NCBI GenBank assembly: GCA_016839445.1
Contig: JAEOUG010000141.1
Location: forward strand, 1 to 45,578
DNA: 45,578 bases
Origin: Candidatus Thorarchaeota archaeon
Lineage (GTDB): Archaea > Asgardarchaeota > Thorarchaeia > Thorarchaeales > Thorarchaeaceae
Direction: 5' to 3'
Part shown: positions 5,370 to 38,691 of the stretch, piece after piece
Layout: the number at the start of each line of letters is the position of its first letter
How positions within the stretch are numbered: position 1 is the stretch's first letter
Program-made: the position numbers and the translations under genes
The notes under the pieces: generated by a model
What the model was told of the DNA's origin: nothing
What the model saw: the letters and a program-made list of their open reading frames with translations, nothing else
Database searches by the model: none

Positions 5370-6122
5370 CTACAGCGTGAGCCTGTAGATCTCTTCAATC
5401 TTCTTGGTGAACTCATTCTCCGGGTAGCGAAGGCTAACAACGAATCTGCTCCCTGCTTCTATTAGAAGAGGAAGGAGTGGTATGATTGTGGCAACTCTTG
5501 ACTTGAATTTGGACTCCACCTCAGAGATTATCGCCTTATCTTCGTAGATGCTCGGCTTCTTGTTGATGACAATCTTGATGTCTGGCACCTGCAGTTTCCT
5601 GGCCACGCTCAGAGTAGCTGCTGTACCCAGCAGGTCCTGCTCGTCGATTCTTGCCACGACAAAGAGGTAGTGGGCAGTGGCCATTGATAGGAGGGTTTCT
5701 CGGTCGAGACCTGGGTGAGTGTCGATTATCAGCATGTCGAGGTCCTTTTCCTTGATTACGTCAGTGAAGCCTCGCTTGAGGTCACCCACCTCGTAGCCCT
5801 CTCTGAGAATCCTAGTGATCTCGGTTGCTGTCATGGAGCTGGGAATGAGGAAGAGCTTTCCCTTCTTGATGCCAAGCCTCTCAGTTAGGTCCATGCACGT
5901 GTCCCCAATGTCGCACGCGCCACGTAGATAATCGTTGAGCGTGTGCTTCATCTTCTCTCTTCCCATGCCAAAGATTACATGAATCCCGGGCGATGCCATG
6001 TCGGTGTCCATCACGGCTACGCGTTTTCCGTCTAGGGCCGCTATCGCCGCTAGGTTTGCGGCGATGTTCGACTTGCCTGTTCCGCCACGGAAACTATGAA
6101 TTGATACGATCTTGCCTGGCAT
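5370..6122 (-). CDS. MinD/ParA-family ATPase
   Basis: Deviant Walker A HSFRGGTGKS, VMDTD (A'), IIDTHPG (Walker B), INK motif; no obvious C-terminal membrane-targeting helix. Confidence 0.92.
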   Translation of the reverse strand: MPGKIVSIHSFRGGTGKSNIAANLAAIAALDGKRVAVMDTDMASPGIHVIFGMGREKMKHTLNDYLRGACDIGDTCMDLTERLGIKKGKLFLIPSSMTATEITRILREGYEVGDLKRGFTDVIKEKDLDMLIIDTHPGLDRETLLSMATAHYLFVVARIDEQDLLGTAATLSVARKLQVPDIKIVINKKPSIYEDKAIISEVESKFKSRVATIIPLLPLLIEAGSRFVVSLRYPENEFTKKIEEIYRLTL

Positions 6123-7404
6123 CTGTTAGCACTCTCTCATTGGACAGCTCGACGTAGTTGCCTAATGCTCTTAAGACTTCTAGGATTCTTCCTGCAGGAA
6201 TGCCTGTTCTCTCAGAGATTTCCTTCAGAGTATGGATTCCGTTACAGTAGGTCCAAATCGAGTCGACTACATCGAAGTCCCTTTTCTTAATTCCTATGAC
6301 CTCGAGATACGCCACGAACCTATCATCTCTCTCGCCAATAACGGGGTAGATTTTTGCTATCCTCACAAGTCCTTTCGTTATGAGCTGCGCCAGAATCTCG
6401 TCGGTCTGCTCGCGAGGAAGGGAACTGGCTTCGTGCAATTCTGTGACAGTGGTTTCGTCACTGAGCTTGTCCAGCATCTTGATGACGCCCGTTCTCATCA
6501 TCTGACTGGCGCCTGCAAACATAATCTGGGATTCCTTCCCCAGCTTGTCGTCATTGTACAGGGGTTGCACAAGATCATAGTCATAGAAGGTGATTGGCCC
6601 CTGCATCTTGTCGGGCTCGAAAAGCCGCACGTCCTCGTACCCTGTCACTTTCACAAGAGTGGTGAATGGCAAGATGAGTTCAAGGTATGTCTTCTCAGAG
6701 AGACCTGCATTCACGACGAAGCTGCAGAATCCCCTCTCGGGGACTCTCACGAAGAGGAACTGCGTCCCTTTGTCAAGGCTCGAATGTTCAGTCATGGTGA
6801 CGGCTTCATCGAGGCTGCCTATCTTGTCAAGGACTGCCTCTAGCTCGTAAGCTCTTAGATTCGAGGTGGCAACATATCCACCAAAGGTTATCAGAGATCC
6901 CCTATGAATGTCACGATTCACCTCTACCTCGGCAAGTGACTTCTTCAGCCTTCTCAGGTCTGCGGAAGGCAGAAGGGCGGTCTTGTACCGCCGAGCAAGT
7001 CCTGGGATGCCGTCAAACTTCTCAAGCGTTGTTTCGACCACGTCGGCAAACGGTCGAAACCTCTTGGAGTCCGGAAGTTCCTTGGTCAGTTCCGAGTAGT
7101 ACTTGCTCACGAACTGCTCTGAAAGCTCCTGCAGGATTACTCTATGTATCTCTCCGCTGTCCTCTTGGAGAACAAGTGCAATGAAGTATAGGTCTCCTTG
7201 CTTCTCCCAGACAAGCTTGTCTTTGGCAAAGCTCATGTACGTTATCCTATCTTGGCTGACTTCCTTCGCGAATGTCCCGACTGCTGAGAGGAATGCGGCG
7301 ACCAGCTCATCCAGTCTTCTGGTTCCACTGACACTGTAGTGAAAGAGGAGAATCCCTGACTCACGAAGGACGATGATCTCTTTGACCAAAGGGCGAGCCT
7401 CCAC
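6094..7404 (-). CDS. Longin + roadblock-like + tandem winged-helix protein (NPRL2/3-like)
   Basis: N-terminal IIVLRESGILLFHYS...LDELVAAFLSAVGTFAKEV is a typical Asgard longin pattern. Middle VNRDIHRGSLITFGGYVATSNL is roadblock-like. Two C-terminal wHTH repeats. Overlaps the ATPase start by 29 nt. Confidence 0.75.
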   Translation of the reverse strand: MEARPLVKEIIVLRESGILLFHYSVSGTRRLDELVAAFLSAVGTFAKEVSQDRITYMSFAKDKLVWEKQGDLYFIALVLQEDSGEIHRVILQELSEQFVSKYYSELTKELPDSKRFRPFADVVETTLEKFDGIPGLARRYKTALLPSADLRRLKKSLAEVEVNRDIHRGSLITFGGYVATSNLRAYELEAVLDKIGSLDEAVTMTEHSSLDKGTQFLFVRVPERGFCSFVVNAGLSEKTYLELILPFTTLVKVTGYEDVRLFEPDKMQGPITFYDYDLVQPLYNDDKLGKESQIMFAGASQMMRTGVIKMLDKLSDETTVTELHEASSLPREQTDEILAQLITKGLVRIAKIYPVIGERDDRFVAYLEVIGIKKRDFDVVDSIWTYCNGIHTLKEISERTGIPAGRILEVLRALGNYVELSNERVLTDARQDRINS

Positions 7405-7463
7405 GATGGTGGCTGCTACTTGTCGGCGGGGGTGCTCTTAATGTCTTCGAAAGCCTCTGGCCT

Positions 7464-8360
7464 CTACTCCACCAAGCCTGCAACCTCTGTCAGTCGCCAT
7501 TGAACTTGGTCTCCGAGTTTCTCAAGCACATCGTATAGCTGCTCTGGTACCACACCCAGTTTCTCGCTTATCTCAACCAGTGATCTAGAGCCGTTGCAGA
7601 GACCTCGCGCCCTCTCAAGCAGCTGGAACTCCTTGCTTGGCAGTCCTACAAGGTCGAGGTAGGCATTGAAGCGGGCATCATTGCCTTCAATCACGGGGCA
7701 CATCTTCGCCACCTTCAGGAATCCCCTTATCGCTAGGTACTCCACAACTGCAGCAATCTCGTCGTCAGGGATTCCGGTGGCCAAGCTTATCCTATGGATT
7801 GAGTTGCTGCCGTCGATTGCCTCCAGCACCCGATTTCCAGACGTGCCGAAGTCTCTGTGAAACTCATCGAGGAATCCTCCAGAGCGGATGGCGATGTCCA
7901 TCGCCCTCTTCTCCAGAGTAGGCACGACGAACCGGCTCAGGTTTGACATTGTCAGTAGGATTTCTTCATAGTCTGCGAAGACCTGAGTCACCTCTTTCTC
8001 AAAGTCCATGAAGACGTCCAGCACCGCAATCTCCATCTTGAGTTCGTCCTGGTAGCGGGAAACGAACTTGCGCGTGAGTTCTCTTAGAACAGCACGAAGC
8101 ACCTTCTCTGATGCCCCGGATTCTACCAGAAAAATGAACAGGAAATCTGAGCCATATTGCTCGTACAGGAGTTCAGATCCCTCAAACGAAAGGCTCTGAA
8201 TTGACTTTTCCCCAAACTCGGACGCGAAGCTCGTAATCGCACTGAGGAATCCTGAAAGCAGCTCGTCAAGCTTCCGTTCATCAGTTCTGGAGTAGTGGAA
8301 GACAGGACTTCCTCCAGTTGTAAGCACCATGAACTCAAGAATCCCGAGTTTGTCAACCAA
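7464..8360 (-). CDS. Longin + tandem winged-helix protein (NPRL2-like), paralogue of the downstream gene
   Basis: FMVLTTGGSPVFHYS...LDELLSGFLSAITSFASEF longin; VLEAIDGSNSIHRISLATGI and LCNGSRSLVEISEKLGV wHTH repeats; aligns by eye with 6094..7404. Confidence 0.78.
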   Translation of the reverse strand: MVDKLGILEFMVLTTGGSPVFHYSRTDERKLDELLSGFLSAITSFASEFGEKSIQSLSFEGSELLYEQYGSDFLFIFLVESGASEKVLRAVLRELTRKFVSRYQDELKMEIAVLDVFMDFEKEVTQVFADYEEILLTMSNLSRFVVPTLEKRAMDIAIRSGGFLDEFHRDFGTSGNRVLEAIDGSNSIHRISLATGIPDDEIAAVVEYLAIRGFLKVAKMCPVIEGNDARFNAYLDLVGLPSKEFQLLERARGLCNGSRSLVEISEKLGVVPEQLYDVLEKLGDQVQWRLTEVAGLVE

Positions 8361-8491
8361 GAGTCCTCTTCTCCTGCTGACCTTCCCCGGGCTGAAGTTT
8401 CTTTAAGATATCGCCTCTGGATTCCTCCGCTCGAAACATCCATATCTTCCTCTGCAAAGCATCCTGCATCGTCTGGGAGGAATCAGTCTCC

Positions 8492-10111
8492 ATGTTACAG
8501 TACCGAGAGTTCCCGTTGAGGACTGCTGCCGTTCTCGTGCTCTTCTCTGCACCGGTTTCGCTCTGCATCTACATAATCACTGGGCTCGTGTCCGGAACAC
8601 TTCTTGGCCTCAGCCTTCCGGAGCACCATGGACTCTTGGGAATCGGTGCATTGGCTGCGACCGTAGTGCTGCCTATCACAGGACTCATTGTTGATCGAAT
8701 GCGGTTCCACGACCACCTCTTGCTGCTGTCGTCTCTCTTGCCAGCGACGGGTGTTCTCCTGAGGCTCTTCCCTGTCTTGCCTGCTAGCGAAGACCAATTG
8801 AACCTGATACTTGCAGTCTTCGTCTTCTCTGGGCTTGCCGCTTCTGCAGTGCTCTGGACTATCCGGGCCAATCAGAGTGTAGTTGCTCGCTACAGAGGGA
8901 GGACCGTTGCCCTGTTTGTGGCGCTCGTTTTGGTTCTGCTTGGAGTATTCACCTCACTTCCCCAACTTGGTGTCGTTCTCAATGGGGACATCCTTGTGAT
9001 TCCCGCCTTCATATCTCTCTTCGCAGTCCTGCTTGCTGCTGCATTCCGTCCGTGGAAGTTCAGCAGAGCTTCTTTCGGAGCGGCGGGCAGTGCCGGTCTC
9101 TACTTCGTTCCGATGGTGTTCGTCCTTGCGGCGCACATGCTCTGGTACTTCGTAACGAAGACCTCAATAGGGGACTTCTTTGCCGGAGACTCCGCATTCG
9201 AGTCATTGACTCAGTTCACCGGGCTTGAATTCGGGCAGTTGATGCCATTGGCAATCGGTGCCATTGTGAGCGCCGTGTCTGCAGACATCCGGGGCCGGAA
9301 AGCTTCTTTCAGCACACTGCTCTTCATGATGGGCCTCTTGACCATCTTCGGGTCGGCTGTGTATCAGACATACTTCGAGCTAACGGATGTTACTCATACG
9401 ACTTGGACTGTCCTTCTTGTAAGCCTCGTTCTGAGTGAGCGTTTCATCGAGGGCTACATGCTTGGCCTGTGTCTCTTCCTTATCTGGCCTGAGATTGGTT
9501 CTGCGCGAAGCAAAGGTCTTCGACTCTCGCTGATCTGGTTCTTCTTCTTGGGATACATGACGCTGTTCTGGGCGGTGGACCTAAACGCCACGGTCTTTGG
9601 GCTGGACTTCCACTTCCCGTCGGTGCTGAGAAGTTTCGGTGGTGAATTCGCCATTCTCTTCTCTCTGATTGGCCTGTATCTGATAGGTCCGTTGCCAGAA
9701 GTCCTAGGCCGCGAGATTGAGATGGAAGATCTCTCTCTTGAATTCGATGAGCGACAGGTCCGAAAGACAGTTGATGCGTTCGTGGGCGCAGATGACTTCG
9801 AGTCCATCAGGAGCCAGCTTGATATCATCGATGCTGGGCAAGAGATCAGCGATAGCGACATGAGTGAGATTCTTGGAGAGGACTCGAAGGACAAGCTGCA
9901 GCTGCGGAGGATCCCCGGGATTGGCGAGGCTCTCGAGAAGAAGATCCGAGCGGCTGGTTATGAATCGGCTGCGCAGCTTGCTGGTGAAACCGCGCAGCGG
10001 CTCGCTCAGAAGGTGGATGGACTTAGCACGGCAAAGGCTGAGGCGATACTGAAGGAGGCCCGGAAAATCGTCAAGAAGACCATCAAGAAGAACAAGCGCG
10101 GAGCGTCCTAG
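8492..10111 (+). CDS. MFS-like polytopic membrane protein with C-terminal helix-hairpin-helix (RadA-N-like) domain
   Basis: About 12 hydrophobic segments with MFS motif A-like GLIVDRMR and SADIRGRK; acidic linker; LRRIPGIGEALEKKIRAAGY...VDGLSTAKAEAILKEARK (HhH)2; Lys-rich tail. Confidence 0.75.
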   Translation: MLQYREFPLRTAAVLVLFSAPVSLCIYIITGLVSGTLLGLSLPEHHGLLGIGALAATVVLPITGLIVDRMRFHDHLLLLSSLLPATGVLLRLFPVLPASEDQLNLILAVFVFSGLAASAVLWTIRANQSVVARYRGRTVALFVALVLVLLGVFTSLPQLGVVLNGDILVIPAFISLFAVLLAAAFRPWKFSRASFGAAGSAGLYFVPMVFVLAAHMLWYFVTKTSIGDFFAGDSAFESLTQFTGLEFGQLMPLAIGAIVSAVSADIRGRKASFSTLLFMMGLLTIFGSAVYQTYFELTDVTHTTWTVLLVSLVLSERFIEGYMLGLCLFLIWPEIGSARSKGLRLSLIWFFFLGYMTLFWAVDLNATVFGLDFHFPSVLRSFGGEFAILFSLIGLYLIGPLPEVLGREIEMEDLSLEFDERQVRKTVDAFVGADDFESIRSQLDIIDAGQEISDSDMSEILGEDSKDKLQLRRIPGIGEALEKKIRAAGYESAAQLAGETAQRLAQKVDGLSTAKAEAILKEARKIVKKTIKKNKRGAS

Positions 10112-11028: not shown

Positions 11029-11943
11029 TCAACGTCTGAAGTGGAATGAGAGACCCGTCCCCGCTAATAGGTCCGCTCCGTCAAGCTGTTTTCCACAGGT
11101 CGCGCATCTGAATACGATCTTAGGATCATTAGAGGCAGTACCACATTTGTTGCACAGGGGCTCAACATCAATGACCGAGAGCTCGCTGACCTTCACTGGT
11201 GTCTTGCAGTGAATACATGTCACCTCAGAAAGATCATCCACAATGACTGCGTGGAACTGAGTGCTGCACCTAGGACAGAAGACGTTGAAGACTTTGTGCA
11301 GGTCCTCCGACTGGCATCTTGGACATAGCAGTTCTATTGTGACATTCGAGTCTCCGCATTGGCGGCACTCAAGACTTCGGCCGTAGGTCTTTGATATCAG
11401 CACACCGGCATCTTCAAGATCGTGGAGAAGTCTGGCTACCTCCTCGTCATCAGTCCCTAGGAAATCCCTTGCAGCGGGGTATCTGTGCGAGGTCCTCAGA
11501 ACATGCTCTGGTCTTACGGAATCTATCCGACCCGTAACGAGTTCCTCGACTAGCTTCTTAACTCCTGGATTTGCTAGGAGCTCATCGCCACTGGTTTCCT
11601 TCATTAATTCATGAAGAAGTCTGAATGACTTCGCAAGTTCGTCGTCCCAGGAATCTGCATCGAAATCAATGTGAGGAACAAGCCTGCGGAGGTTTCTCTC
11701 GACAACGCTCGCCTCCTCCTGTTCTTCGACAAGTACTGCAACGCAAGCAGGGGATCTCATGTAGGAAATGACAAGGCCCTGCTGAAGCTTCGAGTAGCCT
11801 ATCTCTGATTCCTGATTCACTCCGTGGCCCATGAAGACCGTAACTGCTTCTTCAGAAGTGAGGGGAGTTGCCTCTGGATATGACCGACCAACCATTGGTC
11901 CAAGGTTGTCGTCCCACCAAATCGAGAATATCGCCTTCGGCAC
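11029..11943 (-). CDS. Longin/uDENN-like domain fused to TackOD1-like (wHTH + multi-Zn-ribbon) domain
   Basis: N-terminal IFSIWWDDNLGPMVGRSYP (DxxxGP...YP). Then LHDLEDAGVL followed by six CxxC motifs spaced as in Thaumarchaeal output domain 1. Confidence 0.65.
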   Translation of the reverse strand: MPKAIFSIWWDDNLGPMVGRSYPEATPLTSEEAVTVFMGHGVNQESEIGYSKLQQGLVISYMRSPACVAVLVEEQEEASVVERNLRRLVPHIDFDADSWDDELAKSFRLLHELMKETSGDELLANPGVKKLVEELVTGRIDSVRPEHVLRTSHRYPAARDFLGTDDEEVARLLHDLEDAGVLISKTYGRSLECRQCGDSNVTIELLCPRCQSEDLHKVFNVFCPRCSTQFHAVIVDDLSEVTCIHCKTPVKVSELSVIDVEPLCNKCGTASNDPKIVFRCATCGKQLDGADLLAGTGLSFHFRR

Positions 11944-12144
11944 TGCAATAGGTCCCCTGATTTGACCACCGTCTATGGATACAAGTGGACTTGCGCGCTT
12001 GAGTGGAAGTCATTCCGACTTATTTGCATATCCTGCACAGACCCTGTCTGAACTGATACAACCAGCTCTCCACCGAAGACTATAAAACCGAACCTCCAAG
12101 TTCGAGCCCCACACGTCTTGATAGACACAAGAAGGTATCCAGTT

Positions 12145-13911
12145 ATGGCTCATCTGATTCGTAGAAGATCGATACTTGTACTCGCGATATCCTGGTTGAT
12201 TCTGTTGCCGGTGCTTGGCGCTCCAAATCAGAGCGCACTCGATATTGCCCCAGTCTCGATCAGTGAGCCTGCGGCACCTACCATCACTGGCCCTTCCTAC
12301 TATGAGTTCGAAAATGGTAGCCGAGGTCATACTCTCGTCTACAACGCGACCGATTCTGATCCGAAGAACTACACAGTAACGAGAGACGGATCCAGATATG
12401 ACTCCGGCTTGTGGGGCGGCGGAGATATCACCGTCTATCTTGTCTACCTGTACACCCGGAACCTGATTGACGTACTTCCTAAGACGTTCAATTTCACAAT
12501 CACAGTCTTCAACGACGACGACGAGTCGGCTTCCATCAATACTACAGTGTATGTGTACGAGGACATCCGGCCTCCACAGATTGTGCAGCCTGCCAATATG
12601 ACTTACGAGGAGGGCTCGTTTGGCCATGAGATCTTCTGGCAAATCGATGAGTCGAATCCAGCGTTCTACAATATCTCACGGGTTTCGAATGAGCCATCAG
12701 GCAATGCCACTACTCTCGTGAGCGGCACCTGGGATGGGAACAACATCACTTATGGAGTAGACGGACTGAATGCATCACGATGGTACCTCTACACACTCTT
12801 CGTCAATGACACCCTCGGAAGGAATGCGACAAGCACTGTGAATGTCACTGTGTTTCCAGACCTGTCGTTTCCGAACGTGACTAGTCCTGATGACATCTCC
12901 TTCGAGTTTGGTGCTGAAGGGTACAGCATCGTCTGGCATGCCTATGACAGCAACCCGAAGAACTACAGTGTGACTGCAGTCATCCTCTACAACGACACAA
13001 GCTACGGGAACGTGTCAGCTCTGCGTCCTTGGGTGGATGTCATTGAATCGGACTGGACATTCACGGATCCAGCGGGGCAGGACATCGAGATTATTCTGGA
13101 CGGCCTCTTCCTTGGCAATTACTCGGTTACGCTCTCCGTCTTCGACATATATGATCGAGAAACGAACGACACAGTAGAGGTCAACATCTACAAGGACCTA
13201 CGCGCCCCTGTGATTACGACCTCCGGAGACTTGGTCTACGAAGAGGGATACACAGGGAATGTGATTGAGTGGTCTGCCGATGAGAGCAATCCGGTCTTCC
13301 TCAACCTCACGCTGAACGATGTAGAAATTCTTGCCAACGGGACATGGAGAGGTGAGAACTACTCCCTCGACGTGGATGGACTAGACGTTGGTGTCTATCT
13401 CTACAACATGACCTTCAGGGACTACTTCAACCAGACATCCTGGGCCGTCATTCAGGTGGAGGTCACACCGGATGCCCACTTGCCGACCATTGCGCAGGTT
13501 GTAATCATCCAGTCCTTCAACAAGATCACGACAAACAACCTCACGCTCCAGGCATATGTGTGGGACATCAACAACATATCAAGCATCGAAGTGCAGTGGG
13601 GCGTAGGAAACCCTGAGTCGGAGGACTTCGAATACAGCACCATGAACATGACATCAGCATCGATTCAGGACTTCTTCACGGCAGAGCTTGGAGAGTACCG
13701 GCTGAATCAGGTAGTGTGGTTCAGACTGAACGCCACAGACAATTCATCAGTCATGAATCAGAATCTGACCAATTGGACTAGTGTAGTCGTTGTTAGGCAA
13801 AGCTACGTTGGGATTCCAGCAGCACTCTACGGCTTCGTGGCGCTAATGGGCGGGTTGTCCTTCCTAGTAATCTTGGTGCTATATTTCAGAACGAGGACGC
13901 GAGGCAAGTAG
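12145..13911 (+). CDS. Membrane-anchored cell-surface glycoprotein with tandem Ig-like repeats
   Basis: RRR + hydrophobic signal peptide; four ~85-115 aa repeats (P.I..P....(Y/F)E.G..G....W...(D/E)SNP..Y); many N-x-S/T sequons; C-terminal TM + basic tail. Confidence 0.85.
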   Translation: MAHLIRRRSILVLAISWLILLPVLGAPNQSALDIAPVSISEPAAPTITGPSYYEFENGSRGHTLVYNATDSDPKNYTVTRDGSRYDSGLWGGGDITVYLVYLYTRNLIDVLPKTFNFTITVFNDDDESASINTTVYVYEDIRPPQIVQPANMTYEEGSFGHEIFWQIDESNPAFYNISRVSNEPSGNATTLVSGTWDGNNITYGVDGLNASRWYLYTLFVNDTLGRNATSTVNVTVFPDLSFPNVTSPDDISFEFGAEGYSIVWHAYDSNPKNYSVTAVILYNDTSYGNVSALRPWVDVIESDWTFTDPAGQDIEIILDGLFLGNYSVTLSVFDIYDRETNDTVEVNIYKDLRAPVITTSGDLVYEEGYTGNVIEWSADESNPVFLNLTLNDVEILANGTWRGENYSLDVDGLDVGVYLYNMTFRDYFNQTSWAVIQVEVTPDAHLPTIAQVVIIQSFNKITTNNLTLQAYVWDINNISSIEVQWGVGNPESEDFEYSTMNMTSASIQDFFTAELGEYRLNQVVWFRLNATDNSSVMNQNLTNWTSVVVVRQSYVGIPAALYGFVALMGGLSFLVILVLYFRTRTRGK

Positions 13912-16372: not shown

Positions 16373-18268
16373 CTATGTACTTGCCTTTCCTGACGGCGTC
16401 TTCAGAGACGCGACGTGCTTCTTCAATTCATCTTCTGAGTTGTCGGCAGTCAGAAAGAGTGGGACATTGTCAAGCCCCATCGCAATGTAGCTGGACAGCA
16501 GCCACGACCCGGGCGGAAACTCCAACGTCTTGTCCAAGATGCCTATGTCAATCTGGAATGAGCTACTCACCACAGTCCTGTCATAGGGTCTAGGTAGCGT
16601 TCCCACGAAGAAGGTGTGTAGCTGCTGAAGCACGTTGGTGTTGAGATACGCAATTCGTTGAGTGGCAATTGCCCCGCCGAGGCCGTACTTCCGTCCCTGT
16701 CTTAGGAGACGCTCTACTGCATAGCTACATCTCTCTGTCAAGCCGCTTGCCTTACTGGGGATGAACTCCTGCGCCTCGTCGAACACGAACAGGATCTGAG
16801 GCTTAATCTCGAACTTCCTCTTCCTGTACTTCAGTGCTGCAGAGGTGAGTTTCACCACGAGTTCGCGAAGGGTGTCAGGATCCGCCATGGAGAGGCATAT
16901 CAATCGCTCCTTCCCCGACAGCATCTTGAGCATGTCCGAGACTGTGACGCCCTTCGTTGTTGCCTTCTGCGCTCGGGCGAGGCTGCGCTTGAGGCTATCG
17001 CGAGTTGTCGCCCATGCGTAGACACCTGAACTAGAATGGACGTTGAAGGTTTCAACAGCCTTCTTTGCGGCCGCCGCGAACTGGGTGATGAACGGATCGT
17101 CAAGCACGTCTGAGGCCGGCTTTCCCTCCTTTTCCATCCAATCGACGACAAAGCTCTCTGCCTCCTCGATGGCTTGGATGTAGTGGGGTTTGTCAAGACC
17201 CTGGCCAGTCTTCAGGTCTCGAATCTCCTCGAGCAGACTCCCGAACGTAGGAATCTGTGTCAGTGGCTGATTGTAGTACGTGACGTGCCCATCGTTGTAT
17301 AGGTCCTTCAGGACATTGTTGGCCTTGTCATCGTCCTCGAAGTCGCGCGGCTTCACGATGGACCTTGCGAACTGGTCTGCGGAAGTCGCCTCCTCTTCTA
17401 GAATCACCTTGCTGGGTATCTTAGGGTCGCTGATTACATCTGAGAGCAAGAATGGATACTCACAGCTGATGTCGAATATCACGATCTTGCTGTCCTTCGT
17501 GTGATACAGGATTCGTCTGAAGAGGTTTGAGAGTAGGTTGCTCTTACCCCCGCCTGTGAAGGAGAAGACTCCGAAGTGGTATCGTATGAGCTTGTGCAGG
17601 TCAACGTAGACCGGAACCTGCTCTTCTGACTCCATGAACATGCGCAATATACCCACCCTGGGGTCTTTCTTCGGATCTGCAACTGACGGAGTCTTGTCGA
17701 AGCCTATGGACTTCTTCACCTTCGAGTTGTAGATGCTGTCAACTGTCTGCATGTTGATGACCTGGACTTGCTCTCCAACAAGGGGGTACGAGAATCCCTT
17801 CCTGAATTCAATCTCTCCCTTGGCATTGATGACGAGGTCATAGTTGATTGGCACGGCAGTCATCTGCACCATCATGGTCGCTTGGTCGTCTGTGCCCCAG
17901 TCTGGCACTGACTGCTCTATGATCTCCATCTGTAAGGGATAGTAGTGGCTGTCGCTCACACCACCGAGACCGTAATGCTGTGGCCAGACTTTGGAGATGA
18001 CCATCACTGTGAATCTCTCTATCTTCTCCCTTGTAGACCTCTTCGATTGTCCACGGAAGTTCTTGACAGCAACAAGCATACCCTCCTCGAGCTGTGCCAT
18101 GAGTTCCCGGTTGTACTTGATCTTGATTCTGCAGTCGTATCTTGCGGCTGAACCTGCCCACTCACTTGTGTAGTTGGCAGCAACAGGGACCACTCTGGCC
18201 AGTCTGCCTTCGAATGCTCCATCGAAATCTGTGAATAGCTTCTCACGATAGTCTTCTCGATTGCTCAA
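16373..18268 (-). CDS. HerA-family (FtsK/HerA) ATPase
   Basis: HFGVFSFTGGGKSN Walker A, IVIFD, FVFDEAQEF Walker B, RQGRKYGLG..IATQR. GGAGGT SD before TTG at 18268; overlaps the nurA-like stop. Confidence 0.88.
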   Translation of the reverse strand: MSNREDYREKLFTDFDGAFEGRLARVVPVAANYTSEWAGSAARYDCRIKIKYNRELMAQLEEGMLVAVKNFRGQSKRSTREKIERFTVMVISKVWPQHYGLGGVSDSHYYPLQMEIIEQSVPDWGTDDQATMMVQMTAVPINYDLVINAKGEIEFRKGFSYPLVGEQVQVINMQTVDSIYNSKVKKSIGFDKTPSVADPKKDPRVGILRMFMESEEQVPVYVDLHKLIRYHFGVFSFTGGGKSNLLSNLFRRILYHTKDSKIVIFDISCEYPFLLSDVISDPKIPSKVILEEEATSADQFARSIVKPRDFEDDDKANNVLKDLYNDGHVTYYNQPLTQIPTFGSLLEEIRDLKTGQGLDKPHYIQAIEEAESFVVDWMEKEGKPASDVLDDPFITQFAAAAKKAVETFNVHSSSGVYAWATTRDSLKRSLARAQKATTKGVTVSDMLKMLSGKERLICLSMADPDTLRELVVKLTSAALKYRKRKFEIKPQILFVFDEAQEFIPSKASGLTERCSYAVERLLRQGRKYGLGGAIATQRIAYLNTNVLQQLHTFFVGTLPRPYDRTVVSSSFQIDIGILDKTLEFPPGSWLLSSYIAMGLDNVPLFLTADNSEDELKKHVASLKTPSGKAST

Positions 18269-20162
18269 TACTTGACCTCCTTTCTCTGAATGTGCCAAGG
18301 TAGAAGAGGAATTCCCTTAGGTCGGGTCTGTTCAACAGCCACGTTCCTGTGCTTTCAATCATTCCTCTGAATTGGTTGTAGTGGTATTTGGCCACCTTGT
18401 CGGCCACGTAAAGCGGCTTCAGATGTCCGAAGAGCTCAGGAATGCTTCGGCTGGTCATCATCTCAAAGAGACGCACTATGAATCTCTGTATTGGATTGTC
18501 TTGCCCCTGGTAAAAGATCACATCGACCTGTTCTGGGCTGTCAGGGCGATTCTCATAGTCATGTTTCAGACTGACCATCTTCTCCGTTTGGTCATCATAT
18601 CCCTCATAGACAAGCCTGTCGTAGAGAAGGACGTTACTGCGCAGTTTCGGCTCACTGGCTGCCTGACAGAGCTGGAAGTACGCCTTCAGGAATGTCTTCT
18701 CAAGTGAAATCTGGTTTCGTCTTGCGCCAGAAACAAGATTGGGTTCACGTTCAAGGTGTGGCACGATTGTCTTGAACGCGGTGTCGTATTCTACCGATGC
18801 CCAAGGCACTGCCAGCTTGTCACGCTCCTGAAGTGACACCCATTGAAGGATCATGCGGTCTGTGTCCGGAGTATCGTGCCCGGGGCCTCCCAGAGTTCCC
18901 TTGAATCTACCGACGTAGTTCAGAACTGGCAACACCTGTCTCTTCAAGTCCCTAGCGGAAGTGTCCTTCGCGACACCGATGAGGAGAGTCTTGTTCTGCC
19001 AGGCCTTCTCTATGGCCAAGTACAACGACATGAGGCTTAGGAACGAGAGATCATTGGTTGTTATCCACTTACCTCCGACTTTGAATCTCTCTTCGTAACT
19101 GACCTTCGGGTCATTCGAGAACATCCGTCCGCAGACCTCCCTCACCAGGCTCTCAATTCTCTGGCGGATGTCGCGGTACTGTGGCTTAATCACGAACTCC
19201 TTGCCCTTTCTTACTATGATGCCTTCTGCATCTCTGGAACCCCGAATGCCCTGCTCAAGTTCCTTGTCCAGTCTTGCCCTTCCCGAGTCACCTGTCAGCG
19301 ACAGCCGGTCGTACAGCTGCTCTCTTGTCAGTCCCATTGTTTCATCTGCCAGGAGCTCGGCAATAACCCGTGGCAGTAGATACTCTCCCCGCGGCGCCGG
19401 GGTTCCCAGTCGTAGATTTCCCAGCAGCTTTCGTGCGTAGACCCATTCGGACTTGTTGAAGGGTCTGCCTCCCATCTTGTATCCGATGAGGCCGCACTCA
19501 TGGTCGAGATTCACTCTGAAGTCAGAGGTTTCTGCATAGAACGATGCAACCTCCGAGGAGAACACTCTATCAAGGAGAAGAATGTCGACGGGATTCTCTC
19601 CGCTCAGTAGCCAGTACGCTAGATAGAACTCTGAGAGGCCCATCAGGTAGTCTGCAAAGGCCGAATTATCGATTACGTAGGCATCGCTAAACGTGACGCT
19701 CTCGTCTGGGGATCCGTCTTCTGCCCGGACCAGTAGTGTCTGGTCAATCGATGGCACCTCATTGATATAGACCGGGAGAACACTGGAAACGCCAAAACCT
19801 CTCTCCAGATAGTTCTCCTCGTACGAGAGATTTGCCTCACCTTTGTCACCAATCTTGATACTCCCGTGTGCCGAGTATGCCCCCGCGAAGAATATGACGA
19901 GGTCGAAGACGTCCTGCTTCAGGATAGTGCCGTCAATGCCTGCAAAGGTCAGTTCTCTCTTTCCGAAGAACCTGTCAATGAACTCGAGGTCGAACTCCTT
20001 TGCCTCGGCGGAGATGAGCAGTCTTGACAGAACCCCATCGTAGACGCCTCTTAGGCCCTCGAACTTGCTCTTGTAGTCGTCTACCTGCTTTCTGGCCCCG
20101 CCTAGAAGGAGATCTCCTGTCTGTCTAAGACTACGACCGATGAAAGAGCTATCATCGTCCAT
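18243..20162 (-). CDS. NurA-family nuclease, enlarged
   Basis: FAGIDGT, LSEFYLA, LLLDR, IGVAKD and GH..PL..ADK.AK match NurA/RNase H-fold motifs; coupled to a HerA gene; about 640 aa. Confidence 0.8.
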   Translation of the reverse strand: MDDDSSFIGRSLRQTGDLLLGGARKQVDDYKSKFEGLRGVYDGVLSRLLISAEAKEFDLEFIDRFFGKRELTFAGIDGTILKQDVFDLVIFFAGAYSAHGSIKIGDKGEANLSYEENYLERGFGVSSVLPVYINEVPSIDQTLLVRAEDGSPDESVTFSDAYVIDNSAFADYLMGLSEFYLAYWLLSGENPVDILLLDRVFSSEVASFYAETSDFRVNLDHECGLIGYKMGGRPFNKSEWVYARKLLGNLRLGTPAPRGEYLLPRVIAELLADETMGLTREQLYDRLSLTGDSGRARLDKELEQGIRGSRDAEGIIVRKGKEFVIKPQYRDIRQRIESLVREVCGRMFSNDPKVSYEERFKVGGKWITTNDLSFLSLMSLYLAIEKAWQNKTLLIGVAKDTSARDLKRQVLPVLNYVGRFKGTLGGPGHDTPDTDRMILQWVSLQERDKLAVPWASVEYDTAFKTIVPHLEREPNLVSGARRNQISLEKTFLKAYFQLCQAASEPKLRSNVLLYDRLVYEGYDDQTEKMVSLKHDYENRPDSPEQVDVIFYQGQDNPIQRFIVRLFEMMTSRSIPELFGHLKPLYVADKVAKYHYNQFRGMIESTGTWLLNRPDLREFLFYLGTFRERRSSIEQSRRLS

Positions 20163-20217
20163 GTGATCCCCACAGTCTCCTTGTGTACATCTAGCCACGC
20201 AATCGCCAATAAGAAGA

Positions 20218-24933: not shown

Positions 24934-27900
24934 ATGAAGAAGATCAATACGATTCTACTAATCACGTTGCTTTTCGTCAGTATCGCAGGTGCAGCCGCAC
25001 AGGTATCTGCTCAGACAGCTGCAGACCCCATAATGGGTGTCGGTTGGTACGTAGAGGAAGACACTAGGCAGTTTGAGCACACAGAGGCGACTTCGGACTG
25101 GATTTTTGGTCCGCAGCCATCTGTTTGGATCGGATATGCGGAGAACCTGACTGATATTGCAGAAAACCGATACAGAGTGGAGCTCGGCGACCAATTGCTG
25201 ATAAACATCACAATTCCGAAGAGCTTCTTGGGTGCAGGCAGTGTTCTGGATTCCGTCCAATTCGGAGGGATTCAGGCGGGCCTTGAGAGACGCGCTTCCT
25301 TTTTCGGTCTTGAGTACAATCTCACGTCGGACCGGTGGAACAGCGCAAGCTTCGTCTACACTCCAGTGTCTGATGTGCCATCTGCTGCTGGCTTTGTGAC
25401 GTTGCAGTCCGGCAGCTGCGAGTTCCATGAGGACTCAGAGCAGTACGTCGTCGTCTTCGCGATTACCTACTATTTGGCGATACCTCCGGCCGTCTTCAAC
25501 ACAGTGCTTCAGACAATAGACTCAGATGGGAAGCCTACAGTGGCGCCTTGGATTGCAGCTTCCGTTCGCGGACAGCAATACAGTCCACCAATTGGCTTCG
25601 GAATGCCTGTGAACCCATTCGACTTCTCGTTGCCTGACTACTATTACGCTGAGATTGTTGATGAAACCGGTAGCATCCTGCACTACGCCGATGTGAATGA
25701 CACCTTCATCGTAAGGATGCTCTCTACAGCTCAGCTTGGCGAGGCTCTCATCCCCTTTGCCCAGCTGACTTGGGATGATTCCTACATGATAACAGAGAAC
25801 TGGACCTTCCCAGTGGGGCTTGAATTGAGCAGCGCTGTTCTTTTCAACAACGACGTCAACTGGGAGCAGAGAGAGGTTGAGCTCTACCCGACCATGTTCC
25901 TGAAGCTGAACAGCACGGATGCCTACGCAGTAGCCGGGTATCTTGATGTTGACTGGGAATGGATTGACCTGGGTGGAGGTCTTGGAATGTGGTTCCCGCA
26001 TCTTCTGGTGATCGAGAACTCAACCATCGACCTGTCCCGGTACTACGTTGCTGATGATGGATTTACTGGGACCTTTGATGACCGACACAGAGTTCAGTGG
26101 GGTGGCTACTTCACAAACGAGACTGATATGGACCCGGGCTACGGGTACGGTGGAACCATCCGAACAGAGATGGACCTCGTCACTGTGCTTGATGTGAATG
26201 GCGAGCCAGTCTACGCTCGGCCTGAGATTCGCGCCAGAGAGACAATGAAGCTGGCCTTCCGCTCGTCTTTCATTGAGGCATTCGTCTACGACATGAGTGG
26301 CAACATCGCTGATGTGGCCCAGCAAGGAGAGCCCCTCAACCTGACAATGTTGGTTCATCGCAACTACGATGAGATCAATGGTTCCATAATCGTCGAACCC
26401 GAGCCTGGAGCAAGATTCAACATAACGCAGAGGCTCAAGGACCTCACATTGGAGGTAACAGGTTCTGCCATGGACAGCAACGACACACACTACTGGCGAG
26501 TAGATATCACACATACAATGGTACTTGACCTCGAGTTTGACAACTTCACAACAAGCTCGAGTTATCGGGTGTCCATGTTCCTTAAGGGAGGGACACACCT
26601 CTGGACTGTCACTGTTCCTGAGAACCATTGGGCTGTCTCAGAGTTCAGCATAGAGATGGGAGAGGACCTCACAACATTGGAGGTGCTTTTCAGCTTCGAT
26701 GCAGATGCTCCCTCAATGGTAATCGAGAACGCGAGAGTGAAGGTTGGCGCTATCCAGAATGTGAGAATCTGGGATCCCTTCAACTCCACTTGGGGCTACC
26801 CGTGGTGGCTCCTTAGTGCAGGACAGGTTACAATAGGCGAGTACATCCTCCTTGTTGCATCATGGACTGACCACTATGCGCAGGTTGACCTGTCGTCAGA
26901 CACCCTCTGGAGTCCGAACCACCTTCGCCTGGGTGACATACCTACATGGAGACCTCCCGTCTGGACAGTCACTGATGATGGGGCAATAGACCTTGATGGC
27001 AATGTGTTTACCACAGAGGACCAGTACTACATCCTACGGACTGGCTACTGGCATGATTGGGGCAACACGACCATTGAAGGAATGCGCGTCGACCTCGGGT
27101 TCGACCCAACGCCTGGTGAGAATGGCGATGAGTTCTTCTCAAGCAACTGGATGGGCGTCGTGCAGATGAACATCTGGTTCGAAGCCAATGAGACCTTCTA
27201 CTGGTATCACGCTGGCGACGGGTCACCTGTCAGTGCTAGCGAGATGGCTGAGATTCAGGACCTAATGTGGGCTGACTATGACGATGATCTCCCGACTCCG
27301 GGTTACGAGTATGTATCTTGGCTGTCCAAGAATCGTACGTTGGATACGAGTCTCATTCCGGGCCTCGAGAGTGGTCGCTGGTCAACAACCTGGTTCGCAT
27401 GGGGCACTGCGCAGACGTTCGCAGTAGCAGTTTCTCAGACCCAGGCCACCGCGGCCCACTTCAGGGCTGAGTACGCAGGGCTCCTGATCTTCAATGATGG
27501 AATCGGGCCCACTGAGAGCGCTCCTGACTTCTCGATTGAAGCTGGTCAAGTTGTGTCAGACGAGGTCACTCACCTTGTTCTCATAGACAGTGTTGGCAGT
27601 GTTGAGCTTCGGAGACCGTTCGGGGCCACAAACAACACTGGACTGGTCTACGTGGATCCGTCAACGGAGGTCACGTTTGGGGTTTCCATCTACGATGTCG
27701 ACGTGACCATCTATCCTCTCAGGGTAGAGCACTCCTCTGCACTCAGAGGCGCGTGGGACTTCAGACAGTCCTATGAGGGCTCTATGGGGCTCAATGCGAC
27801 AAGCTTTGACTACTGGGTGACACAAGCCACAGTTGATGAGATGTCCTTTGACATTAGCTTCTCTGTTGACATGGTTGACTTTGATAGTCAGGACCCAACC

Positions 27901-28491
27901 AAGTGGAACCATGCAGTCGAGTTCAAGGTCGACCAGAGGTTCGGTGACTGGACCCTCCACGACTTCGACAACACTGTTCTGGACGGTCGGAGTCTGGCTG
28001 TGAACTTCTTCGGTGTCTTGGCAACAGGCACACGCACTAGCTACACCGCTGGTGAGCGACCTGTGACGGACACCAATGGAGCCAGCCTTGATGCATCATA
28101 CTACCAGTTCGGATCTGAGAGCAGTCCCTTCGCTAATGTCACGATGGGTGGACTTCCCTACACCTGGGGCGGCGATGGTCATTCACAGATCCACTTCTCT
28201 GGGTCATCAACCGCGCCTATTGGTGCCTTCAGCATCATGTACGAGTCGGCATCAGGCACATCTGTCACCAACTGGAACATTGAGGCTTCGATGCTCTTCA
28301 TGACAGCAGGCTATGAGAACTGGGGTGGACAAGACATAATCTGCGACCCCGTGTTCGTGGCCTACACAAGTGCATCTCAGTCCGGAGGGACCACCTTCGC
28401 TGGCGAAGGTAATCCCGCCATGCTATACATTGCCGTTGGTGGCTTTGTTGCACTGGTTGTCACAGTGTGCGCTCTCTACCGCAGAAGGTAG
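24934..28491 (+). CDS. Large membrane-anchored surface (S-layer-like) glycoprotein
   Basis: GAGGTGA SD; MKK + hydrophobic signal peptide; acidic, Trp/Tyr/Thr-rich beta-type body with N-glycosylation sequons; C-terminal TM + RRR. Confidence 0.8.
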   Translation: MKKINTILLITLLFVSIAGAAAQVSAQTAADPIMGVGWYVEEDTRQFEHTEATSDWIFGPQPSVWIGYAENLTDIAENRYRVELGDQLLINITIPKSFLGAGSVLDSVQFGGIQAGLERRASFFGLEYNLTSDRWNSASFVYTPVSDVPSAAGFVTLQSGSCEFHEDSEQYVVVFAITYYLAIPPAVFNTVLQTIDSDGKPTVAPWIAASVRGQQYSPPIGFGMPVNPFDFSLPDYYYAEIVDETGSILHYADVNDTFIVRMLSTAQLGEALIPFAQLTWDDSYMITENWTFPVGLELSSAVLFNNDVNWEQREVELYPTMFLKLNSTDAYAVAGYLDVDWEWIDLGGGLGMWFPHLLVIENSTIDLSRYYVADDGFTGTFDDRHRVQWGGYFTNETDMDPGYGYGGTIRTEMDLVTVLDVNGEPVYARPEIRARETMKLAFRSSFIEAFVYDMSGNIADVAQQGEPLNLTMLVHRNYDEINGSIIVEPEPGARFNITQRLKDLTLEVTGSAMDSNDTHYWRVDITHTMVLDLEFDNFTTSSSYRVSMFLKGGTHLWTVTVPENHWAVSEFSIEMGEDLTTLEVLFSFDADAPSMVIENARVKVGAIQNVRIWDPFNSTWGYPWWLLSAGQVTIGEYILLVASWTDHYAQVDLSSDTLWSPNHLRLGDIPTWRPPVWTVTDDGAIDLDGNVFTTEDQYYILRTGYWHDWGNTTIEGMRVDLGFDPTPGENGDEFFSSNWMGVVQMNIWFEANETFYWYHAGDGSPVSASEMAEIQDLMWADYDDDLPTPGYEYVSWLSKNRTLDTSLIPGLESGRWSTTWFAWGTAQTFAVAVSQTQATAAHFRAEYAGLLIFNDGIGPTESAPDFSIEAGQVVSDEVTHLVLIDSVGSVELRRPFGATNNTGLVYVDPSTEVTFGVSIYDVDVTIYPLRVEHSSALRGAWDFRQSYEGSMGLNATSFDYWVTQATVDEMSFDISFSVDMVDFDSQDPTKWNHAVEFKVDQRFGDWTLHDFDNTVLDGRSLAVNFFGVLATGTRTSYTAGERPVTDTNGASLDASYYQFGSESSPFANVTMGGLPYTWGGDGHSQIHFSGSSTAPIGAFSIMYESASGTSVTNWNIEASMLFMTAGYENWGGQDIICDPVFVAYTSASQSGGTTFAGEGNPAMLYIAVGGFVALVVTVCALYRRR

Positions 28492-38533: not shown

Positions 38534-38691
38534 CTTCCCAATCCTATCCAGAACCATCGCCCATCCCGCTGCCTGTGTGAATTCCCGCACGAGAGGTTAT
38601 AGGTCTTTCATCCTGAATGAGCCATCTCGAGGAGTGCAGAGGTCTTCTCTTGGACGCCGTGTCTGCGGCATCACTAGTGTGTACTACGACC

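Follow-up and report, generated by a model that had tools for sequence, protein, structure and literature searches.

Conserved gene linkage between predicted longin-winged-helix proteins and a ParA/MinD-class ATPase in some Asgard archaea

Here, we propose that a set of adjacent genes in a Candidatus Thorarchaeota archaeon forms a conserved cellular module built around an ATPase of the ParA/MinD class. The genes lie in contig JAEOUG010000141.1 (assembly GCA_016839445.1), of which we analysed a stretch of 45,578 nucleotides (nt), here called the window. They comprise two paralogues whose structural models contain a longin domain and winged helices (genes A and B), the gene for the ATPase, and a divergently oriented gene for a membrane protein. 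Our strongest result is the tie of the longin-winged-helix genes to the ATPase gene, which is conserved beyond local synteny and across two classes of Asgard archaea. We observe domain architectures, paralogy, fold likeness, gene linkage, co-loss and single-copy vertical inheritance, and on this basis we hold with moderate confidence that in some Asgard archaea the genes form a three-part cellular module, passed on by vertical descent and dispensable, in which the ATPase would act together with a longin-(roadblock)-winged-helix partner and with the membrane protein or DNA.

Genes A, B and that of the ATPase are read in the same direction, from the minus strand. Gene A (7464..8360) is an open reading frame (ORF) of 298 residues (aa) and is followed, after a spacer of 59 nt, by gene B (6094..7404; 436 aa). 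The stop codon of B (TAG, 6096-6094) falls 29 nt inside the ORF of the ATPase (5370..6122; 250 aa), whose ATG is at 6122. This 29-nt overlap (6094-6122) is produced by an extension of the B C-terminus, which reads ...VLTDARQDRINS in the window and ...VLSHVR in most orthologues; across orthologous loci, B overlaps or abuts the start of the ATPase gene. On the other side of A, a divergent intergenic region of 131 bp (8361..8491), with putative promoters, leads into the plus-strand gene for a polytopic, major facilitator superfamily (MFS)-like membrane protein of 539 aa with a C-terminal helix-hairpin-helix (HhH) (8492..10111). An initial annotation, made from the sequence of the window, had described A and B as adjacent, co-oriented paralogues, the second overlapping the ATPase start, and this description stands: BLASTP aligns both their N-terminal parts (E 1e-20, 31% identity) and their C-terminal parts (E 1e-18, 29% identity). 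The peptides that it quoted were located in the translations of B (AKIYPVIGERDDRFVAYLEVIG and YCNGIHTLKEIS) and A (AKMCPVIEGNDARFNAYLDLVG, LCNGSRSLVEIS, RFVVPTL, VLEAIDGSNSIHRIS and VEYLAIRGFL).

How far does this arrangement extend? We call the window's family f1 and its sister family f2, these being the only two families in the window's class, and use f14 for a family of another Asgard class; an NCBI protein labelled Candidatus Hodarchaeota archaeon matches the ATPase from one f14 genome at 100% identity. Among 400 Asgard genomes, full-length B occurs only in f1, f2 and f14. Gene A has 256 relatives at E<=1e-3, and among the 120 listed the named sources are all Thorarchaeota or Promethearchaeota, while for B a library of 1.84 billion yields only 57 cluster representatives at E<=1e-3. 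Because the genomes are related, they do not count as independent samples, and the figures for linkage, co-loss and rate given here are thus descriptions, not statistics.

Within Thorarchaeota, the synteny set holds 38 loci, 6 of them cut by contig ends and 32 informative. The ATPase gene lies within 60 nt of B in 29 of the 32; the three exceptions are one locus with a 1.2-kb insert that carries a gene for an ADP-ribosylglycohydrolase, one with no ATPase downstream and one with no B. A count made by hand from genome coordinates, which overlaps the 38-locus set and is not independent of it, places the ATPase directly after full-length B in 49 of 54 f1 genomes. In f2, B is adjacent to an ATPase that is 61% identical, and the membrane protein is not alongside.

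Several observations weigh against a functional bond between these genes. Much of the linkage within Thorarchaeota is ordinary synteny, the whole block TackOD1-MTD-(MFS-HhH)-A-B-ATPase-GNAT-AOR being conserved across the 38 loci (MTD, methylene-tetrahydromethanopterin dehydrogenase; MFS-HhH, the membrane protein; AOR, aldehyde:ferredoxin oxidoreductase). In two lineages, B and the ATPase are separated by unrelated genes spanning 1.2-3.3 kb, and in another lineage (L033/G317) A-B and the ATPase are on different contigs, the ATPase-GNAT-AOR part being on the other one. No fused B-ATPase form is present among the 57 B-derived representatives. The winged helices of A and B are acidic to neutral, yet the first winged helix (WH1) of B passes the Pfam cut-off of the DNA-binding TrmB family. 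Finally, ATPase orthologues that are 47-52% identical occur in f17-f19 (4 of 7 genomes) without a longin neighbour; the ATPase clade can therefore do without a longin partner and is older than it.

Synteny this deep would hold any neighbours together, and f14 is therefore the telling comparison. At all 5 f14 loci examined, B (28-32% identical) is followed by the ATPase (50-55%), with MFS-HhH (25-28%) divergent upstream, and queries with AOR, GNAT, MTD and TackOD1 found none of these at the 5 loci, which leaves MFS-HhH as the only other neighbour found. Counted by hand from genome coordinates, B and the ATPase are adjacent in 17 of 19 f14 genomes. The tie that the initial annotation drew between these genes and the ATPase is conserved both in Thorarchaeota and in f14. 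The genes are also lost together: of the 16 f1 genomes without an ATPase match, 11 are also without an A/B-level match, including two that are 97% (G336) and 92% (G370) complete. The remaining 5 have A or B matches, several of them truncated or beside contig ends, and no genome in this f1 comparison has the ATPase without any A/B-level match. Loss from near-complete genomes indicates that the module is dispensable; in the window's genus it is present in 23 of 27 genomes.

These data bear on the view that adjacency here implies no partnership, with A and B acting on Rag-, Arf- or Rab-like small GTPases encoded elsewhere, as other Asgard longin/roadblock proteins may do, and merely sharing an operon with the ATPase. 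Asgard longin/roadblock genes are indeed linked or fused to small GTPases (Liu et al., 10.1101/2020.10.19.343400), and one distant relative of the A/B longin, P0166, is fused to an Arf/Ras-like GTPase domain. However, the B-ATPase order survives in another class where, of the other neighbours used as queries, only the membrane protein was recovered; the genes tend to disappear as a set; and B and the ATPase overlap. In addition, Pfam scans of 32 window ORFs gave no small GTPase (Ras, Arf or Gtr1), and no search for Rag-like GTPases or DEPDC5 was made in the remainder of the genome; for the window, this agrees with the initial annotation, which had placed an ATPase where a Ras-like GTPase would be the usual neighbour. 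We therefore regard simple adjacency as very unlikely.

Some loci depart from the usual spacing. Two Thorarchaeota lineages have an insert of about 3.6 kb that separates A from B (L038:7084-10279, and the same position in L042), with the B-ATPase adjacency kept; at L038 it holds genes for a PAS histidine kinase (594 aa), a lone receiver domain (120 aa) and a further HATPase_c protein (344 aa). The genes that intervene between B and the ATPase are, in one lineage, a gene for an ADP-ribosylglycohydrolase on the same strand (317 aa; L092:2587-3540) and, in another lineage, one for an 883-aa DUF4350/PKD-domain protein on the opposite strand (L091:3125-5776). Apparent B-ATPase fusions of 684 aa at L028, L029 and L032 were set aside, the translations of L028 and L032 showing an in-frame stop between the genes. 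In one Thorarchaeota genome, the ATPase gene beside an intact B has two in-frame TGA codons and is matched only over residues 58-247, at 69% identity (G334:C3:53607-54173), and may be a decaying copy or an assembly error.

The two paralogues are not always found together. Most of f1, like the window, has both A and B. In f2 and f14 there is B only, the best genome-wide matches of A being the two ends of B itself. In g12, a Thorarchaeota genus, the matches of 9 of 17 genomes to the B profile are no stronger than A itself would give (E 1e-32 to 1e-34), and 4 of 4 g12 loci examined (L086-L089) have the block otherwise intact, with B cleanly absent and A lying about 100 nt from the ATPase. A remnant of B, consisting of its last ~45 codons only, lies between A and the ATPase at L030:1127-1261. 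Thus, across the arrangements in f1, f2 and f14, the ATPase is never without a longin-winged-helix partner, and A or B alone can fill this role. In a maximum-likelihood tree, A forms one clade (support 100 in the Shimodaira-Hasegawa-like approximate likelihood ratio test, SH-aLRT) and Thorarchaeota B another (97), and the single-copy B of f2/f14 groups with A and not with Thorarchaeota B (SH-aLRT 86-87). With outgroups on very long branches and an uncertain root, this tree does not settle in which order duplication and loss took place.

What do these proteins look like? The AlphaFold2 model of A (mean predicted local distance difference test score, pLDDT, 83; predicted template modelling score, pTM, 0.75) consists of a beta-beta-alpha-beta-beta-beta-alpha domain, a helical linker and two winged-helix units. 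This strand and helix order is that of longin domains. The longin core covers residues 7-102 (8055..8342, minus strand), and its closest Pfam model is Fuz_longin_1 (Fuz/Mon1/HPS1 longin 1; E 9.8e-6, 26.2 bits against a cut-off of 26.1). The tandem winged helices of A (residues 163-224 and 229-292; 7485..7874, minus) are defined by model helices and strands and by matches to Pfam TrmB and HTH_47. The model of B (pLDDT 78) has the same parts, namely a longin domain (residues 9-106; 7087..7380, minus) and tandem winged helices (residues 301-356 and 361-421; 6142..6504, minus), plus an inserted alpha-beta-beta-alpha-beta-beta-beta-alpha domain of roadblock type that is missing from A (residues 147-253; 6646..6966, minus). 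WH1 of B matches Pfam TrmB at E 1.6e-9. The AlphaFold2 models, Foldseek and Pfam thus concur with the initial annotation in giving both proteins a longin domain and tandem winged helices.

The most conserved stretch common to both paralogues is a D-x-R-F-x-A-Y-L motif between the winged helices, of which D228, R230, F231, Y234 and L235 never vary among 20 A orthologues, nor D360, R362 and F363 among 22 B-family members. Across the B family, the positions that open the WH1 recognition helix vary. Among distant relatives of the A/B longin, P0148 carries a V4R domain. The window's own genome also holds two weak relatives of the A longin inside far larger ORFs: an open frame of at least 1551 aa with carboxypeptidase-regulatory-like and immunoglobulin-like matches (G000:C35; L004:937-3336), and a 677-aa frame with TPR repeats (G000:C188; L005:1-1869).

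The initial annotation had taken A and B for a GATOR1-like NPRL2/NPRL3 pair. In Foldseek searches with the A model, ranks 1-12 all go to GATOR1/SEACIT chains, which, judged by chain length and chain lettering, are NPRL2/NPRL3 (E 4.5e-8 to 2.8e-5, 350-460 aligned columns); the best single-domain longin is weaker (6.2e-5). For B, the GATOR1 chains (E ~2e-7, 470-500 columns) tie with CPLANE and Mon1-Ccz1 (E ~1e-7). Template modelling (TM) scores against the GATOR1 chains are low (0.22-0.34), and the domains are therefore alike but differently arranged. At the level of sequence, none of 22 B-family members and none of 20 A-family members matched Pfam NPR2 (PF06218) or NPR3 (PF03666) at E<=0.1, A- and B-family profiles found no NPRL chain in the PDB at E<=10, and single-sequence PDB searches with A and B gave chance-level matches only. 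The nearest approaches are weak matches to HTH_NPRL3 in 9 of 22 B-family members (best 1.8e-4) and a match of a distant relative, P0176, to the NPR2 C-terminus (6.9e-4). In their models, then, A and B have an NPRL2/NPRL3-like whole-chain architecture, while NPR2/NPR3 family membership and GATOR1 homology are not demonstrated. Of the annotated pair, the whole-chain fold holds up (leading for A, shared for B) and the sequence family membership does not; nor did any sequence search, profile searches included, support the likeness to NPRL2 that had been seen in the sequence of A.

Could A and B nonetheless work as NPRL2 and NPRL3 do? In this reading they would form an obligate heterodimer whose paired longins act like a GTPase-activating protein (GAP), stimulating the ATPase through an arginine finger and replacing MinE or ParB. 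Besides the Foldseek ranking of A, in which NPRL2/NPRL3 chains come ahead of single-domain longins, B is longer than A by its inserted domain, just as NPRL3 is longer than NPRL2, and the conserved basic residues B K63, B R362 and A R230 are invariant. GAP-type longins have an arginine finger and a "GP motif" (PMC12290439), and A (G17-S-P19) and most B-family members (consensus G-I-P) carry a G-x-P motif directly before longin strand 2, near the published position of the "GP motif". In the window's own B, however, the proline is replaced by leucine (G-I-L, 7350-7356), and no residue could be equated with the catalytic arginine of NPRL2. The absence of an NPR2/NPR3 signal from all 42 family members and from the PDB profile searches speaks against this reading as well. 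Systems with a single paralogue exist, with A only in g12 and B only in f2 and f14, and the grouping of the f2/f14 B with A, unsure as the root is, means that there is no simple conserved duo. The A-only and B-only loci, each with its ATPase, therefore argue against the obligatory NPRL2/NPRL3-type heterodimer of the initial annotation and for an adaptor that dimerises as a homomer or a heteromer. Overall, an obligate, GAP-like pair seems unlikely to us.

Turning to the ATPase, Pfam AAA_31 (55 bits), CbiA (50) and ParA (48) all match above cut-off, and the closest solved chain is archaeal MinD-1 (1hyq_A; E 9.4e-12). MinD proper was rejected on curated NCBIfam scores, which lie far under the cut-offs (71.2 against 201.75 for minD_arch, TIGR01969; 39.9 against 212.9 for minD_bact, TIGR01968). 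The segment HSFRGGTGKSN (H9 to N19), which includes the Walker A motif R12-G-G-T-G-K-S18 (6069..6089, minus), is invariant in 24 of 24 aligned orthologues, even in those that are ~50% identical, and so are D39-T-D41, D134, P45-G46 and P137-G138; from what is known of the class, we take these to be the deviant Walker A, the Walker A' (DxD; D39-T-D41) and, for D134, the Walker B motif. ParA and MinD carry a signature lysine in Walker A, where this ATPase has Arg12. Judged by sequence, it is a ParA/MinD-class ATPase of the SIMIBI (signal recognition particle, MinD and BioD) group with an Arg-substituted deviant Walker A; its C-terminus reads ...EFTKKIEEIYRLTL.

Each of the 92 genomes with a match has a single copy of the ATPase. 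Its identity drops as taxonomic distance grows, as expected of vertical descent: 85-89% inside the genus, 74-85% inside the family, 61% for f2 and 47-53% for other classes. Across loci its median identity is 87%, compared with 67% for A, 62% for B, 61% for AOR, 52% for the membrane protein and 48% for MTD. In f17-f19, the ATPase neighbours (L082-L085) are a TPR protein, a 110-137-aa protein, a ~200-aa long-helix protein and an ADP-forming acyl-CoA synthetase-like protein. Of the ~200-aa long-helix proteins, one of two scanned gave a weak winged-helix match; hhalign detected no similarity of these proteins to A or B, with probabilities of 1.3% for the B profile and 0.2% for the A profile.

An arginine in lieu of the Walker A lysine and a PG motif are traits given for the ConB2 clade of ParA proteins in a recent preprint (Li, Burroughs, Aravind, 10.64898/2026.10.19.760177). 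According to its main text, a mainly archaeal system, ParA-wHTH, couples ParA to one or more winged helix-turn-helix (wHTH) genes, in which the wHTH, predicted to evolve rapidly, is sometimes fused to a V4R or profilin-longin-like domain, and the system is predicted to be immune, coating invading DNA. Should the same hold here, the winged helices would recognise the DNA of mobile elements, and the ATPase and a multimerising longin would coat or sequester it. The ConB2 traits of the ATPase (Arg12 and the invariant PG dipeptides), the wHTH coupling with occasional V4R or longin-like fusions (P0148 being a longin relative with V4R) and the variable first positions of the WH1 recognition helix in the B family all favour this, and the dispensability of the module, lost as it is from near-complete genomes, keeps the reading alive.

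For this branch, though, an immune role is disfavoured by fixed synteny, slow evolution, metabolic context and the lack of a meaningful PADLOC match. The module is single-copy, its metabolic neighbourhood is unchanged across 38 Thorarchaeota loci, and 23 of the 27 genomes in the window's genus have it. Its ATPase is 79-89% identical across the family, unlike a protein in an arms race, and the median identities given above for A and B (62-67%) and the ATPase (87%) are similar to or above those of the metabolic neighbours. In PADLOC, A had no match, B a marginal and non-significant one (E 0.006-0.008), and the ATPase a weak one over its N-terminal ~75 residues. The flanking genes scanned are mostly metabolic, with a HerA-like ATPase 10 kb away, and no nuclease or toxin families turned up in Pfam scans of them. 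The main text of the preprint names no Asgard taxon (10.64898/2026.10.19.760177). Taken together, we consider anti-mobile-element defence an improbable role for these genes.

The winged helices also raise a role in DNA partition or positioning, with A and B as DNA-binding adaptors (analogues of ParB or SegB) or TrmB-like regulators, the ATPase serving them as ParA, and the membrane protein holding DNA at the membrane through its HhH tail. TrmB-type wHTH matches occur in 20 of 22 B-family and 19 of 20 A-family members, that of B WH1 reaching 37.9 bits against a cut-off of 25.6; the membrane protein has a Pfam HHH_5 domain (E 1e-7); and the ATPase class is generally best known for positioning DNA or proteins (10.64898/2026.10.19.760177). 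On the other side, the net charges of the winged helices are -4 and -4 in A and -2 and -1 in B (family medians -6 to 0), unlike those of typical DNA-binding wHTH domains, and the same fold serves protein contacts in NPRL2/NPRL3, which an acidic-to-neutral net charge would, by analogy, fit. Classical par operons have parA preceding parB, the opposite of the B-then-ATPase order seen here. A partition system of this kind is, in our estimation, a doubtful alternative.

The membrane protein itself belongs to the conserved core. In 33 of 34 Thorarchaeota loci its gene is divergent from A at a distance of no more than 300 nt, and in 5 of 5 f14 loci it lies beside B. Its hydrophobic segments fall within residues 7-406 and its HHH_5 match at residues 471-525, and a protein-language-model look-up scored the membrane part as MFS-like (0.98; 22 of 30 matches).

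What might such a module do? In the three-part module that we favour, the ParA/MinD-class ATPase would be the engine, presumably working as ATP-dependent dimers. The longin/roadblock platform would dimerise, as a homodimer or a heterodimer, dock on the ATP-bound ATPase dimer and tune its ATP cycle, while the winged helices would tether the complex to a cargo or site. The likeliest cargo would be the divergently encoded MFS-like membrane protein with its HhH tail, or DNA held by that tail. We infer this binding, ATPase regulation, cargo and cellular role from gene linkage and predicted folds.

A more specific version, which we regard as a long shot, is an archaeal transporter-coupled switch. 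Here the tail of an MFS-like "transceptor" would recruit the longin/roadblock-winged-helix scaffold, which in turn would control a dimerising SIMIBI nucleoside triphosphatase (NTPase) switch, in parallel to, and perhaps foreshadowing, the transporter-Ragulator/GATOR-Rag logic of eukaryotes. If this were true, a ParA-type ATPase dimer would stand in the place of the eukaryotic Rag GTPase heterodimer, and NPRL2/NPRL3-type proteins would have regulated dimeric P-loop switches at membranes before their tie to Rag.

Whatever its mechanism, the linkage matters in its own right. The longin and roadblock proteins counted among the "eukaryotic signature" proteins of Asgard archaea are many and mostly have no conserved gene neighbourhood; here one family has a fixed and ancient genomic partner, the ParA-type ATPase, along with the membrane protein, and this yields a testable hypothesis on the role of an NPRL2/NPRL3-like scaffold in a prokaryotic cell. 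The A-only, B-only and A+B variants offer ready-made biochemical comparisons. For this branch, the stable, single-copy pattern in a metabolic neighbourhood points to a cellular role and not to the predicted immunity.

Elsewhere in the window, genes are mostly metabolic: aldehyde:ferredoxin oxidoreductases, methylene-tetrahydromethanopterin dehydrogenase, an F420-hydrogenase beta-like protein, GTP cyclohydrolase II, a glycogen debranching enzyme, a phosphoenolpyruvate (PEP)-utilising enzyme and PEP carboxykinase. The TackOD1 protein (11029-11943, minus; 304 aa) combines a TackOD1 output domain with several zinc ribbons (Pfam E 1.6e-15); it is syntenic with the module throughout Thorarchaeota and was not found at the f14 loci. 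Its N-terminus of ~130 residues is assigned to no family, and a longin-like nature was unsupported (hhalign probability of 0.2% against the B profile). The HerA-like ATPase 10 kb from the module (Pfam DUF87; PADLOC HerA, E 6.2e-45) overlaps the end of a 651-aa ORF without a family match (16373-18298 and 18243-20198, both minus), and the two could be a HerA-partnered system. Four other long ORFs have no Pfam match at E<=1e-4: 24934-28491 (+; 1185 aa), 580-2550 (-; 656 aa), 12118-13911 (+; 597 aa) and 37073-38590 (-; 505 aa). In three metatranscriptome contig sets, one 166-nt contig from one RNA library equals 7531-7696 inside gene A, beside two short unlike pieces; this contig is no demonstration of transcription or co-transcription.

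How does the module compare with known systems? Both of its halves, and similar pairings, are already in print. An "NPRL2-like" Asgard family, with a longin and a small NPRL2-type C-terminal domain, was described from most Thorarchaeota and a few other Asgard metagenome-assembled genomes (Liu et al., 10.1101/2020.10.19.343400, Fig. 5c), and A and B very probably belong to this one family, because architecture and narrow range match. The NPRL2-like longin is often fused to two-component domains (Liu et al., 10.1101/2020.10.19.343400), of which the two-component insert between A and B at L038 is an echo. The passages on this family mention neither the ATPase, nor the membrane protein, nor a roadblock domain.

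The ATPase half has its counterpart in ParA-wHTH, and we consider it probable that the locus is a member of that described kind. R12 and both P45-G46 and P137-G138 are invariant here, either of which PG dipeptides may be the ConB2 motif, and A and B, each with a longin and two winged helices, directly precede the ATPase. The f17-f19 loci, with the ATPase followed by a ~200-aa long-helix protein, resemble the simple ParA-wHTH form (10.64898/2026.10.19.760177). The same preprint notes longin-like domains as frequent companions of SIMIBI and TRAFAC (translation factor-related) NTPases; its main text names neither a roadblock domain nor an MFS-HhH partner, nor any Asgard taxon. Unlike the predicted immune systems, the module here is single-copy, syntenic and slowly evolving in a metabolic neighbourhood. 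The initial annotation saw a hybrid of a prokaryotic ATPase and a eukaryote-like regulator: the gene pairing is there, but the idea is not new, ParA-wHTH systems with longin-like fusions having been reported (10.64898/2026.10.19.760177).

Among eukaryotic proteins, NPRL2-NPRL3 (yeast Npr2-Npr3, in the core of GATOR1/SEACIT) likewise have an N-terminal longin followed by a C-terminal part that contains winged helices, and are likewise two paralogues of unequal length, the genes for A and B being encoded together. Unlike NPRL2/NPRL3, B has a roadblock domain, the pair is not obligatory, and the encoded neighbour is a SIMIBI ATPase. The tri-longin subunits of Rab guanine nucleotide exchange factors (RabGEFs; Mon1-Ccz1, Fuzzy-Inturned/CPLANE and HPS1-HPS4) have three longins, no winged-helix tandem and Rab GTPases as targets. 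A and B are ruled out as such subunits, A having one longin and B a longin and a roadblock, each followed by winged helices; the Fuz_longin_1 match concerns the first domain alone.

In gene arrangement, the closest parallels are MglB-MglA and Ragulator/Rag, in which a dimeric longin/roadblock platform is encoded beside the NTPase that it regulates; that NTPase is Ras-like, whereas here it is of the SIMIBI class. In MinD-MinE and ParA-ParB, small dedicated partners drive the cycle of a deviant-Walker-A ATPase, but these partners are short and peptide-bearing, whereas the candidate partner here is a large multidomain longin-winged-helix protein. By analogy, the module may thus be likened to a ParA-plus-adaptor pair built on a eukaryote-like longin scaffold.

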